A program made the translations under genes and the position numbers. Positions 42,556-45,115 of a DNA stretch of 64,000 nt are shown in pieces. The number at the start of each line of letters is the position of its first letter. Within the stretch, counting starts at the first letter, position 1. The DNA is from an uncultured Solirubrobacterales bacterium (GTDB lineage Bacteria; Actinomycetota; Thermoleophilia; Solirubrobacterales; 70-9): the NCBI GenBank assembly GCA_963729995.1, contig CAVSPF010000005.1, forward strand, positions 24,344 to 88,343, given 5' to 3'. The notes under the pieces were generated by a model. That model saw only the letters and a list, made by a program, of their open reading frames with translations, did no database searches and had not been told where the DNA came from.

Positions 42556-43205
42556 CCAATCCCTTGCGGAATTGCGCACAGATCCCTTCTCTCTGTGTTG
42601 AGAGGTCCTTCTATCCCTGTTGCTTTCCCTAGGCCCAGTAGGGCCTTTGCGTCCCTGCAACCCCTGCGGGAATCCGTAACTGTAGGGAAACGGCGTGGTT
42701 TCCACAAGAGACAAAACCTTCCTCCTGTTGGCCAGAGCCTCAGCTCGTGGCCAAGTCCACAACTGGGCAGCTGACCGCAACCAGCGGCCCGATGGCGCCC
42801 CAAGAGATTGTGCGGATATCCGTGCTAAGTCGGGTGTTTAGAGAAGTGTCAAGTCACTCGAAACAGCACCTGCGCCTCGACCTACGTCTGAGGCGCGGGT
42901 GGAGCCGAGCCACCGTCTTTGGGCCCGATCGGAATTGGACCGAGTTCTACAAAGCGATGGATACAAGAGTGCCCCGGGCCGGATTCGAACCGGCGACCTG
43001 CCGCTTAGGAGGCGGCCGCTCTTTCCAGCTGAGCTACCGGGGCAATGGCCTCGATTATCGCGCCTCCGGGTTGGAACAAAGGTTGGGACAAATCTGCCCT
43101 CTGACGCCCTGGCGGCCGTTGGCGTCTTTCTTCGAAACCGCATTGGCAAGCCACTTTCGGGATTTCAAGCCAGTTCAGGACTTGACAAACTGACGCTCCT
43201 AAGGA
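42556..43205 (-). repeat. Right copy of the 650-bp perfect inverted repeat
   Basis: Reverse complement of 34586..35235 (coordinates sum to 77791). Ends with the core CTCCTAAGGA at 43196..43205. Confidence 0.9.
42970..43043 (-). tRNA. tRNA-Arg(CCT), element-borne copy 2
   Basis: Identical to the copy at 34748..34821, in inverted orientation. Confidence 0.92.
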
Positions 43206-43317
43206 ACCCTTCGTAGCGCGACAGCGGGCGAACGGTTACCTCCCTCAAAGCCACTCGTAGAGCCGAATTAGGCTGATCGAGAGTGGAGCAGATCCGCCGC
43301 TTGTTCGACAGGTTGGA
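43196..43317 (+). repeat. Left copy of the 122-bp perfect inverted repeat (core + integrase-proximal arm + first 35 nt of int)
   Basis: Checked base by base against the reverse complement of 44994..45115 and found identical. With the adjacent 650-bp repeat it forms an intact attP-like junction in inverted orientation. Confidence 0.9.
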
Positions 43318-43438
43318 CCGACTGGAGAGTCGCCAGCGCGAGCGCTCGGAGAGCGATCAGCACCCGGCCAAGAACCTATGGCTACGGACGCCGAAACGGG
43401 CGACGGCGCCGCTGAAAGGCAGCCTGATGCTGGGGGGA

Positions 43439-45028
43439 TTAGGCCGGAACAGCGGGATGCCGCTCTGGCTCTCGAGCCCTGCGTCTTCGGGCTTGACGCT
43501 CGCCCTCTTTAGCGGCACGAGCCCGCCGCCGACTCTGGGCCTCCCGCTGAGGGCCCTCTCGCTCGTCGGGCTTGAATGGATTCTGTTCGACTCCGAGCCG
43601 AGCCCGCCGACACTCGTCCTCGATCTCAAACGGCGGCTGGCCGAAGTAGCGGGCGATCAGGTGGCTGTAGTAACGCTGCAGGGTCTCGATGTCGTGTGCC
43701 GCCCACCCGGCAAGCAAGTGCAGGTTCATTCCGTGGGGTCCCATCACCAGGGTTGAGTGAAGGGCCATCGAAATTGCCGTATGGCGACAGTCGTAAAAGG
43801 TCATTCTGTGGAGCCCGACGGGTGCGTCCGGCGCTTGCGCCGCGGCGGTCCGGGCCGGAATCCACACTCTTTTGACCCACTGGTTGTAGTTGTTCTTTGT
43901 CCACGCCAGCGGTACCGGTTCGCCCCCATCCTCTGGCGTCACCCATATAGGCCCTTCGTCACCAAGGGCCTGAAAGACCAAACCATTCTGCGGCTGAGGC
44001 CCGAAGCGATCCTCCAGCGCTTCGCGGTAGACGGCGATGCGATCCCAGGCGTTGGGGAGAACGAGGGCGACGTGCGCCCCCGTCTTCAAGCCTGGGATGA
44101 CTTCCGGATCGCCCTGGCGCGCCCGCTGCAGCTCGACCGTCCCGATCCCGGCGCTTGGGTCTGGCGGGGCAAACAGATTTTCCCAGGCGGCCGACAGACG
44201 CCATTCGGATGGTCGCGAGGCGATGGTGTAGCCCATCGCTGCCACTAAGGCGGCATCGCGGAGCGGCAACAGATCATCACGCGCTGGACGAGCCAGCACC
44301 GCCTCGATGATCCGCTCCAAGCCGATCGCATCAGCGGCGTAGGCGAGGCGCGATTTGCTCTGCTTGGGAAGCTGGATCAGTCCCGACAGCTCCACGGTAA
44401 GAGCGTTTGGGTGCCGGCGCCTTCCCCAGCGCATGACGGCTCGAAACAGTTTCAGGATTTCTCGTCGCTTTGATTGCTTCAAACCGTCGGCGATCAGTTC
44501 ATCCTGAAAGCGGACAAGAGTCGCGGGGTCCGCTGAAATTCGATCAAGTCGTGTTCGTCCGATTGGTCGCGGCTCGATCTCCTTCGCCCAAAATTTGGCC
44601 GACCTCTCGTGGTATTCCTGGCTCACTTCCGGTCCGTGGTTCACGATCCACTCGCGGAGAAGATCGTTCGGAGTCATGGCGCAGGCCGGGTCGACTCTGA
44701 CCACCGCGCCGTCGACCTTGACCGCTTCGCGGGCTTCCGCGAGGAAGGTGACCGCCGCCTCCAACGCTCGATCCAACGAGCCCAGCTTGCGCTCCGAGAA
44801 CGAACGGCTCGGATGACGCCTGATCCCGTTGTGGTCCTCCTCCCACCAGCGACTCCGGTAGCCGACGATGACGCCGTCGGCCTTGCGGGTGGTGGCGGAA
44901 ATGCCATCGGGAAGCTCATTGCCGTGGTGATCGGTGCCTGTCTCTCTCACCTCCAAAGCCATCCGTTCCAGCCCCTTTTGTCCCAACCTCTGTTCCAACC
45001 TGTCGAACAAGCGGCGGATCTGCTCCAC
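43439..45028 (-). CDS. int: Tyrosine-type site-specific recombinase/integrase
   Basis: 529 aa with a GTG start. C-terminal catalytic region: ..ARPSEWRL.., FYDCRHTAISMAL (HxxR) and LAGWAAHDIETLQRYYSHL (catalytic Tyr). Basic Arg-rich tail. Confidence 0.85.
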   Translation of the reverse strand: MEQIRRLFDRLEQRLGQKGLERMALEVRETGTDHHGNELPDGISATTRKADGVIVGYRSRWWEEDHNGIRRHPSRSFSERKLGSLDRALEAAVTFLAEAREAVKVDGAVVRVDPACAMTPNDLLREWIVNHGPEVSQEYHERSAKFWAKEIEPRPIGRTRLDRISADPATLVRFQDELIADGLKQSKRREILKLFRAVMRWGRRRHPNALTVELSGLIQLPKQSKSRLAYAADAIGLERIIEAVLARPARDDLLPLRDAALVAAMGYTIASRPSEWRLSAAWENLFAPPDPSAGIGTVELQRARQGDPEVIPGLKTGAHVALVLPNAWDRIAVYREALEDRFGPQPQNGLVFQALGDEGPIWVTPEDGGEPVPLAWTKNNYNQWVKRVWIPARTAAAQAPDAPVGLHRMTFYDCRHTAISMALHSTLVMGPHGMNLHLLAGWAAHDIETLQRYYSHLIARYFGQPPFEIEDECRRARLGVEQNPFKPDEREGPQREAQSRRRARAAKEGERQARRRRAREPERHPAVPA

Positions 45029-45115
45029 TCTCGATCAGCCTAATTCGGCTCTACGAGTGGCTTTGAGGGAGGTAACCGTTCGCCCGCTGTCGCGCTACGA
45101 AGGGTTCCTTAGGAG
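44994..45115 (-). repeat. Right copy of the 122-bp inverted repeat (functional int 5' end + arm + core)
   Basis: See 43196..43317. Confidence 0.9.

Follow-up and report, generated by a model that had tools for sequence, protein, structure and literature searches.

The 64,000-nt stretch of an uncultured Solirubrobacterales genome analyzed here (contig CAVSPF010000005.1, positions 24,344 to 88,343; hereafter the window) carries a 10.5-kb island at 34596-45105, with a G+C content of 0.55 to 0.68 against 0.71 in the flanks. The island splits a tRNA-Arg(CCT) gene on the minus strand, and the two halves share a 10-nt core, TCCTTAGGAG. Within it lie a divergent tyrosine integrase gene (int1), a cargo segment, and a third core that points the opposite way. 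The features are listed in window order; positions are those of the window unless an assembly is named.

34554-34595, minus strand: resident tRNA-Arg(CCT) 3' half, closing in outer core copy 1 (34586-34595, TCCTTAGGAG)
34596-35235, plus strand: arm X (P arm, 640 nt), with a tRNA-Arg(CCT) and a tandem GGTTGGRAC pair
34748-34822: island-borne tRNA-Arg(CCT), first copy, in arm X
35236-42555, no strand assigned: unique cargo segment U, 7320 nt
35537-35671, plus strand: 13-mer TCGACAGGTTGGA, then the remnant of a second integrase 5' end
42556-43195, minus strand: arm X', exact inverted copy of X
42969-43043: island-borne tRNA-Arg(CCT), second copy, in arm X'
43196-43205, minus strand: internal core CTCCTAAGGA, center of the inverted attP, opposite to both outer cores
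43206-43317, plus strand: arm Y (P' arm copy, 112 nt), stopping inside the first GGTTGGRAC repeat
43318-43438, minus strand: noncoding tail downstream of int1
43439-44962, minus strand: int1, 507 amino acids, divergent tyrosine recombinase (phrog_1 integrase, E value 5.6e-16)
44963-45000, minus strand: integrase leader with tandem GGTTGGAAC / GGTTGGGAC (44977-45000), candidate arm-type binding sites
44994-45105, minus strand: arm Y', exact inverted copy of Y, the functional P' arm beside the outer core
45106-45147, minus strand: outer core copy 3 (45106-45115) and resident tRNA-Arg(CCT) 5' half

Repeats and attachment sites of the tRNA-Arg island

The order along the locus is tRNA 3' half, core, X (640 nt), U (7320-nt cargo), X', inverted core, Y (112 nt), tail and integrase (1676 nt), Y', core, and tRNA 5' half. 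Two perfect inverted repeats account for it. Repeat I1 pairs 34586-35235 with 42556-43205 (650 nt, 100% complementary), and repeat I2 pairs 43196-43317 with 44994-45115 (122 nt, 100% complementary, 1676 nt between the arms). The two overlap in the 10-nt core at 43196-43205; I1 encloses the cargo (7.3 kb), and I2 the integrase (1.68 kb). Perfect 122-nt inverted repeats are expected by chance about 3e-63 times in 14 kb. A scan of the whole 2.34-Mb genome for inverted pairs no shorter than 80 nt and no more than 20 kb apart returned five pairs only, all of them in this island and one other, and the core or its reverse complement occurs at three sites only (34586, 45106, and, inverted, 43196).

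On either side of the internal core, the sequence repeats an island end as its exact reverse complement, over 640 nt in one direction and 112 nt in the other. The internal site reads GACG-CTCCTAAGGA-ACCC, the exact reverse complement of GGGT-TCCTTAGGAG-CGTC, the junction obtained by joining the island ends, and the whole of X'-core'-Y is likewise the exact reverse complement of Y'-core-X. Judged by its sequence, the internal core is an almost complete attP in inverted orientation. Its P' arm ends inside the first of two GGTTGGRAC repeats and is therefore shortened, so the site is not quite complete; it lacks one or two of the presumed arm-type sites.

An earlier note on this DNA, made from the letters alone, had read the cores at 34586 and 45106 as attL- and attR-type junctions and had placed the integrase gene between perfect 122-nt inverted repeats; both statements hold, with halves of the split tRNA at either junction. 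It had also called the site at 43196-43205 a complete attP in reverse. Both arms and the inversion are there, but the P' arm is truncated within GGTTGGRAC, and the P arm beside the internal core, to which the note gave no length, is 640 nt long. The stretch 43206-43317 is, as claimed, identical to the reverse complement of 44994-45105, but the 35 nt of integrase reading frame attributed to it are not real coding sequence. In the int1 family the start is the ATG at 44962, and homologues have 480 to 507 amino acids; the upstream GTG at 45028 is a nonconserved extension that is lost in one relative (L051, below). With the start at 44962, the repeat contains no coding sequence and ends 31 nt upstream of the integrase gene. 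A plus-strand open reading frame (ORF) beginning at 43283 is also noncoding, because its frame is shifted by indels between this genome and the closest relative, G462. The tail contains a hairpin at 43319-43332 (CGACT-GGAG-AGTCG) in which pairing is retained in G462 through a compensatory change.

The tRNA target is clear. Joining 34554-34595 to 45106-45147 gives a 74-nt tRNA that matches, at 96 to 100% identity, the unbroken tRNA-Arg(CCT) of about 60 congeneric genomes; the core thus lies inside a tRNA gene at both island ends, with the gene intact in relatives, and the crossover falls in the anticodon loop. Neither island junction forms an anticodon stem, and the split gene is left unrebuilt. 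The sole tRNA-Arg(CCT) genes of the genome are the two island-borne copies in X and X', which were also the only Rfam matches in 33500-46500.

Int1 found no Pfam match and no match among PDB sequences. Nevertheless, R250, K293, R393-H394, W420/H423, and Y431/Y432 are invariant in 13 int1 homologues, and the first His of the HxxR motif is replaced in this family by an invariant Y390. A model of moderate confidence (pLDDT 67) has the integrase of Tn1549 as its best fold match (6en0_B, E value 6e-4, probability 0.99), and its N terminus is modeled as a small beta-sheet and one helix. Catalytic residues and catalytic-domain fold both place int1 among the tyrosine recombinases. No int1 match was found in a metagenome contig collection that was also searched.

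The island contains 7 of the 36 genome-wide copies of GGTTGGRAC, an enrichment of about 40-fold over the genome; they are located at 34699-34722 (minus strand), 43069-43092, 44977-45000, and 35544-35552. The tandem pairs are 12 nt apart and lie about 105 to 135 nt from the core, nearly symmetrically on the two attP arms; in two relatives, G462 and L055, the motif stands two or three times in tandem. Integrase sites of the arm type, as in a lambda-type heterobivalent system, would be expected to be arranged in this way, and the repeats are candidates for such sites.

Cargo segment U encodes a DUF7002/DarT-like protein, a kinase together with an adenylosuccinate-synthetase-like protein, an M78 peptidase fusion, and two ORFs without an assigned product. 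No replication or transfer gene was recognized among the cargo ORFs. Near its left end, the 13-mer TCGACAGGTTGGA is followed by the remnant of a second integrase, covering residues 1 to 34 at 88% amino acid identity (93% nucleotide identity to 44862-44989, inverted). The 13-mer has only three copies in the genome, at 35537, 43305 (43305-43317), and 44994 (reverse complement, at the Y'/int boundary). At the right end of U, a conserved promoter-like TTGACA-17-TACTAT (42484-42512) reads toward the internal attP.

The surroundings of the split tRNA are rearranged. A simple empty site between the left-flank gene and the pyruvate kinase gene, as expected in relatives, was not found, since their flanks are 200 to 500 kb apart. 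In all of the approximately 60 relatives of the genus that were searched, tRNA-Arg(CCT) lies downstream of the left-flank gene and codirectional with it, its 5' end adjoining the gene, and pyruvate kinase lies 200 to 500 kb off, beside a tRNA-Ser. In the window, the split tRNA-Arg and the island are inverted relative to the left-flank gene and abut pyruvate kinase (34512-34595, 45106-45260). Elsewhere in this genome (designated G000, with contigs C1 and C3), at G000:C1:177021-178952, a tRNA-Ser is joined to the region that in relatives lies downstream of tRNA-Arg. From these arrangements, at least two rearrangements would be needed at the locus, with breakpoints within about 40 to 110 nt of the tRNA.

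Recurrence of the layout and orientation of the cargo

The same layout, with the same Y/int boundary (falling between GGTTGGA and AC) and the same tail/Y' boundary, is present in four other assemblies:

G462, metagenome-assembled genome (MAG) "uncultured Solirubrobacterales bacterium MFD05502.bin.2.138": integrase 90% identical; inverted repeats of 124 nt (99.2%) and 490 nt (99.0%)
L055, JGI metagenome contig: inverted repeat of 127 nt, 99 to 100%; X...X' up to the contig end
L051, a second JGI metagenome contig: inverted repeat of 122 nt, 97%
L056, Logan contig: inverted repeat of 84 nt, 88 to 89%, forming both contig ends

G462, the closest relative, is a Nanopore MAG of the Microflora Danica project (PMC12313526); it has a tRNA-Arg in each long arm, and its internal core is inverted. 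The outer approximately 250 nt of X have 87 to 88% identity to X of G462 and L055.

Ten arms could be aligned. Identity is 89 to 100% within an element and 73 to 96% between elements; the L051 arms, for instance, are about 25% different from the window arms yet 97.5% alike. On this alignment the arms are shown to undergo concerted evolution. In a maximum-likelihood tree, the repeat-carrying integrases form one clade (support 100/99) that also includes one integrase of unknown repeat status, and the seven repeat-lacking integrases in the tree (among them L052, L053, L054, L075, L076, and G016) fall outside it. The int1 homologues G016 and G019, with 52 to 58% identity, lie at loci without the layout; G019, whose locus has no repeat, was left out of the tree. 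The topology shows a single origin of the layout within one integrase clade. What the earlier note had treated as the peculiarity of one island is instead the conserved architecture of a clade, and such recurrence excludes, for practical purposes, both an assembly artifact and a private accident of this genome.

The relatives outside the clade with 67 to 73% integrase identity have a canonical organization, in which an excisionase (Xis)-like gene with an HTH_17 domain is convergent with the integrase 3' end (L052, 11583-11870; L053, 11531-11878; L075, 3767-4138; L076, 1696-2040). In the repeat-bearing clade no homologue of this gene was detectable, and the inverted attP copy occupies its position. 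One of the canonical relatives, L052 (ENA ERZ25039483 contig_19874, 11899-21515), belongs to a much larger element that occupies this same tRNA-Arg site and also carries Replic_Relax, AAA_10, and TcpE-like genes; by gene content it looks conjugative, while using an integrase of the int1 family.

Comparison of two members of the clade bears on the orientation of the cargo. The integrases of L055 and G462 are sisters in the tree (99/97), and their cargoes differ except for about 110 nt and about 270 nt shared at the two ends. The left end of U in L055 is the reverse complement of the right end in G462, and vice versa for the other end, such that the cargo end following the internal attP in L055 is the one following the outer junction in G462. 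These two sister elements, in which the U/X junctions fall inside single contigs, show, at the level of assembled sequence, that the cargo segment exists in both orientations relative to the integrase/att frame; the inversion isomers anticipated by the earlier note are in this comparative sense borne out. The window, G462, and L055 hold three unrelated cargoes in the same frame, which fits an exchangeable cassette without proving one.

At L055 186-225, the tRNA 5' half beside the left-flank gene is not the resident type but that of the element (95% identity to the tRNA-Arg carried by the window island), which points to earlier replacement of the host gene by a tRNA copy from an island, or to use of such a copy as the target itself.

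A second island with the same design lies elsewhere in this genome, in tRNA-Phe(GAA) (G000:C3:1659363-1669145; L040 5363-15145; 9.8 kb, low G+C). Its order is native tRNA 3' half with flank, X2, a 6.7-kb cargo, X2', an inverted element-borne tRNA 3' half with flank, the integrase, and the same block again, which rebuilds the tRNA. Its inverted repeats measure 635 nt (99.2%, with a 6702-nt spacer) and 134 nt (99.3%, with a 1669-nt spacer), an internal inverted attP is present, and its cargo encodes a Dcm methylase, Vsr, a GmrSD-like nuclease, PadR, and SnoaL. The integrase, a standard PF00589 enzyme, shows no relationship to int1 outside the catalytic box; nine homologues in other genomes lie beside tRNA-Phe or tRNA-Thr and have no repeats. 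The crossover region of this island is clearly asymmetric, so the near-palindromic core of the tRNA-Arg island, which is real (9 to 11 nt) and to which the earlier note had drawn attention, cannot be the general cause of the layout and is not needed for it.

Noncoding modules at the inner ends of the long inverted repeats are common to both islands, diverged to 67 to 80% identity (window 35040-35360 and 42482-42722; L040 5790-6119 and 12625-12864). They include an identical 44-mer, CGACCCGAGATCCTTGAAAACCGAATCTTTGCGGCACCTGGCCT (window 35296), and the TTGACA-17-TACTAT promoter (42484). The module at 35040-35360 has no Rfam match and is absent from the 400 family genomes searched, and a 30-mer taken from it had no match in the genome contigs searched. 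To judge from its conservation between the islands, the shared module may be an unmodeled RNA or a regulatory region.

Possible function and origin of the inverted duplication

We consider it likely that these islands represent a clade of Solirubrobacterales integrative elements that carry the attachment region twice, inverted, around the integrase gene, and in which the two copies recombine and thereby flip the cargo. Arm Y as the P' arm (112 nt), arm X as the P arm (640 nt in this island), and the 10-nt core between them would make up the duplicated region, with one copy on each side of int1. When the element integrates through one copy, that copy would be divided between the outer junctions in the tRNA-Arg(CCT) anticodon loop, and the other would stay whole inside the element as the third, inverted core. 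With one copy split and one whole, inverted repeats ending at a core come to bracket both the 1.68-kb integrase segment and the 7.3-kb cargo. Excision via the outer junctions would release a circle, as predicted from the integrated structure, with two 762-bp inverted repeats, each with a core, between the integrase and cargo segments. Recombination between the copies, presumably through integrase action on the inverted cores, RecA action along the long repeats, or both, would account for the near-identity of the copies and for the flipped cargo. The layout probably originated by inverted duplication of the attP region beside the integrase gene, in place of the Xis-like gene of the canonical relatives. 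Our preferred guess is that the duplication is tolerated or self-maintaining and makes the cargo an orientation-free, exchangeable cassette; with no replication gene visible, amplification is only a formal possibility.

Several observations weigh against this explanation or limit its reach. The L056 arms are only 88 to 89% alike, so homogenization is not universal. Orientation of the integrase segment can be read in four elements and does not vary among them, which lends inversion of this segment no support. Inversion isomers within this population, and the circular form, are predictions from assembled sequence. Arm variants do not separate integrase-mediated from homologous flipping, because they are private to one G462 arm. 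Since none of the nine homologues of the tRNA-Phe integrase has the layout, the second case comes from a single assembly. Finally, the cargo has no recognized replication or transfer gene, and what speaks for an amplification of the kind known from the yeast 2-micron plasmid is geometry.

The junctions at 42555/42556 and 43317/43318 are not at cores, and recombination between cores alone therefore cannot have built the structure. Antiparallel integration, tandem dimers with core inversions, and head-to-head dimers were each considered, and none yields the observed order. A nested insertion would: a circular sister element (35550-43317) would have entered a small resident element, inverted, at the 13-nt TCGACAGGTTGGA in the integrase leader and not via attP x attB, the guest consisting of a decayed integrase gene, cargo, X', core, and Y, and the internal attP being the unused attP of the guest. 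One step of this geometry gives the present order exactly, the 13-mer occurs in the genome only at the two novel junctions and the Y'/int boundary, and the integrase 5' remnant follows the first 13-mer copy. Yet the tail/Y' boundary is common to G462, L055, and L051, which have no second integrase remnant; any such insertion must accordingly predate the clade and is not specific to this genome. Moreover, the supposed host and guest agree fully in X and Y (100%), but the remnant reaches only 93% identity, and the tRNA-Phe island has no remnant, with the sequences that flank it here lying only 116 nt apart there, which makes the remnant look like a later patch. Either the insertion was ancestral to the clade or the remnant is such a patch, and we regard a nested insertion as a rather unlikely origin. 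An inverted dimer that collapsed, or a repeat beside the cargo that grew outward over the att region, would likewise be compatible with the structure.

That the layout arose in the computer is a different matter. An assembler could have mixed integrated and excised forms, or fold-back chimeric reads could have produced the copies; both window repeats are 100% identical, and the genome is a metagenome bin, probably from long reads. However, the layout is found in five assemblies from at least three pipelines (the Microflora Danica MAG, two JGI metagenomes, and a Logan contig), the arms have diverged in some of them (97% and 88 to 89%) while co-evolving within each element, and the feature lies mid-contig, at 59 to 69 kb of 100 kb. 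The suspicion that the internal copy is an assembly artifact, which the earlier note had itself raised against its reading, is extremely improbable.

Two functional alternatives concern what the inverted copy is for. The 122-nt repeats could make int1 an invertible on/off switch, read either from the promoter of the truncated host tRNA or from the 42484 promoter through X'. Int1 is indeed flanked by inverted cores as the sole gene of its segment, and the conserved -35/-10 at the cargo end reads toward the internal attP. In the tRNA-Phe island the integrase has the opposite orientation with respect to the tRNA 5' half, but it belongs to a different family, and its orientation is for that reason no evidence of flipping. 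Against a switch, all four elements of the int1 clade have the integrase in the same orientation, and the arms are identical, so that the 112 nt directly upstream of the gene would be unchanged by inversion; we judge it quite improbable. The same argument extends to the cargo. With arms identical for 112 and 640 nt beyond the cores, both junctions are unchanged by inversion, and neither boundary context nor expression would be altered in the manner of a DNA-invertase phase switch, which makes a classical switch of this kind unlikely.

Alternatively, the internal region could act as a splint that aligns the ends of linear single-stranded DNA for circularization, or that folds single-stranded DNA into a duplex att site; CTX phage, which uses a folded attP, offers an analogue. 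The case for a splint is its geometry, the internal segment being the exact complement of the circle junction, as is the internal complementary region of DIRS-1 (PMC7192593). Neither island, however, has a reverse transcriptase, relaxase, or rolling-circle replication gene (nor has the tRNA-Arg island an RNase H gene among its ORFs, which also sets it apart from DIRS-like elements), the complementary stretches of 112 and 640 nt are far beyond what a splint requires, and the canonical relatives are mobile without an internal copy. A role of this kind therefore seems extremely improbable.

Significance and relation to known systems

No description of such an island was found in the literature searched, whose coverage was partial and gives no proof of novelty; the layout with an inverted internal attP is real and, it appears, a type of construction not described before for an integrative element. 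Defense and other accessory genes are carried to a great extent by islands in tRNA genes, whose textbook anatomy has a single attP and a single integrase, direct repeats at either end, and a tRNA that is rebuilt. A whole clade, and an independent second island, depart from this anatomy by keeping a second, inverted attP. If the integrase drives the flipping, the elements would put an integration system to a new use inside themselves and provide a natural model of cassette exchange between inverted sites; if homologous recombination alone does so, they would still be a clear case of a self-maintaining inverted duplication. There is a practical side as well. Island-mapping software that seeks direct repeats will miscall the layout, and short-read assemblers break on it; several members of the clade are known only as contigs of about 1.8 to 2.2 kb that end in repeats.

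The tRNA-Arg island shares much with tRNA islands of the Islander type (PMC4383910), tandem and nested ones included: an end-located tyrosine integrase, crossover in the anticodon loop, short identity blocks, an intact tRNA at the empty site of relatives, and defense cargo. It differs in leaving the target tRNA-Arg unrebuilt and bringing its own tRNA-Arg(CCT) twice, in having an inverted rather than direct internal attP, in the long inverted repeats around the integrase and the cargo, and in having no adjoining Xis-like gene.

DIRS-1 is a eukaryotic tyrosine-recombinase retrotransposon with an 88-bp internal complementary region that serves the completion of cDNA (PMC7192593). It resembles the island in that an internal region is the exact complement of the joined termini and integration is by a tyrosine recombinase. 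The island, in contrast, has no reverse transcriptase, and its complementary region is 762 bp long and amounts to a full recombination site.

Cin and Gin of phages P1 and Mu are serine invertases, and inversion by them changes which gene ends are expressed; in the invertible segment of P1, the sites lie at the outer ends of inverted repeats of about 0.6 kb, beside the recombinase gene. Here, too, a segment lies between inverted recombination sites near a recombinase gene, and both orientations occur. The island instead uses a tyrosine integrase, its sites double as integration sites, and its junctions are the same in either orientation.

The yeast 2-micron plasmid, with its FLP/FRT system, is, like related plasmids of yeasts, a circle in which long, precisely maintained inverted repeats of about 600 bp contain the target of a tyrosine recombinase encoded in one of the two unique segments that they separate, giving two inversion isomers. 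The circle predicted from the integrated structure of the island would likewise have two long inverted repeats, each with a recombination site, and a tyrosine recombinase encoded in one unique segment. The two differ in that the island integrates into a bacterial tRNA gene, has no recognizable replication genes, and forms a circle by prediction, in that its sites are of the attP type with long arms and presumed arm-type sites, and in that its integrase is not of the FLP family. It is conceivable, if rather doubtful, that these are 2-micron-like integrative elements, in which integrase recombination between two inverted attPs, placed inside the long, homogenized repeats of the excised circle, is part of the life cycle; it might let the defense cargo pass between elements as an orientation-free cassette, a natural form of recombinase-mediated cassette exchange, or amplify the circle, and it would replace the Xis-dependent arrangement of the canonical relatives.

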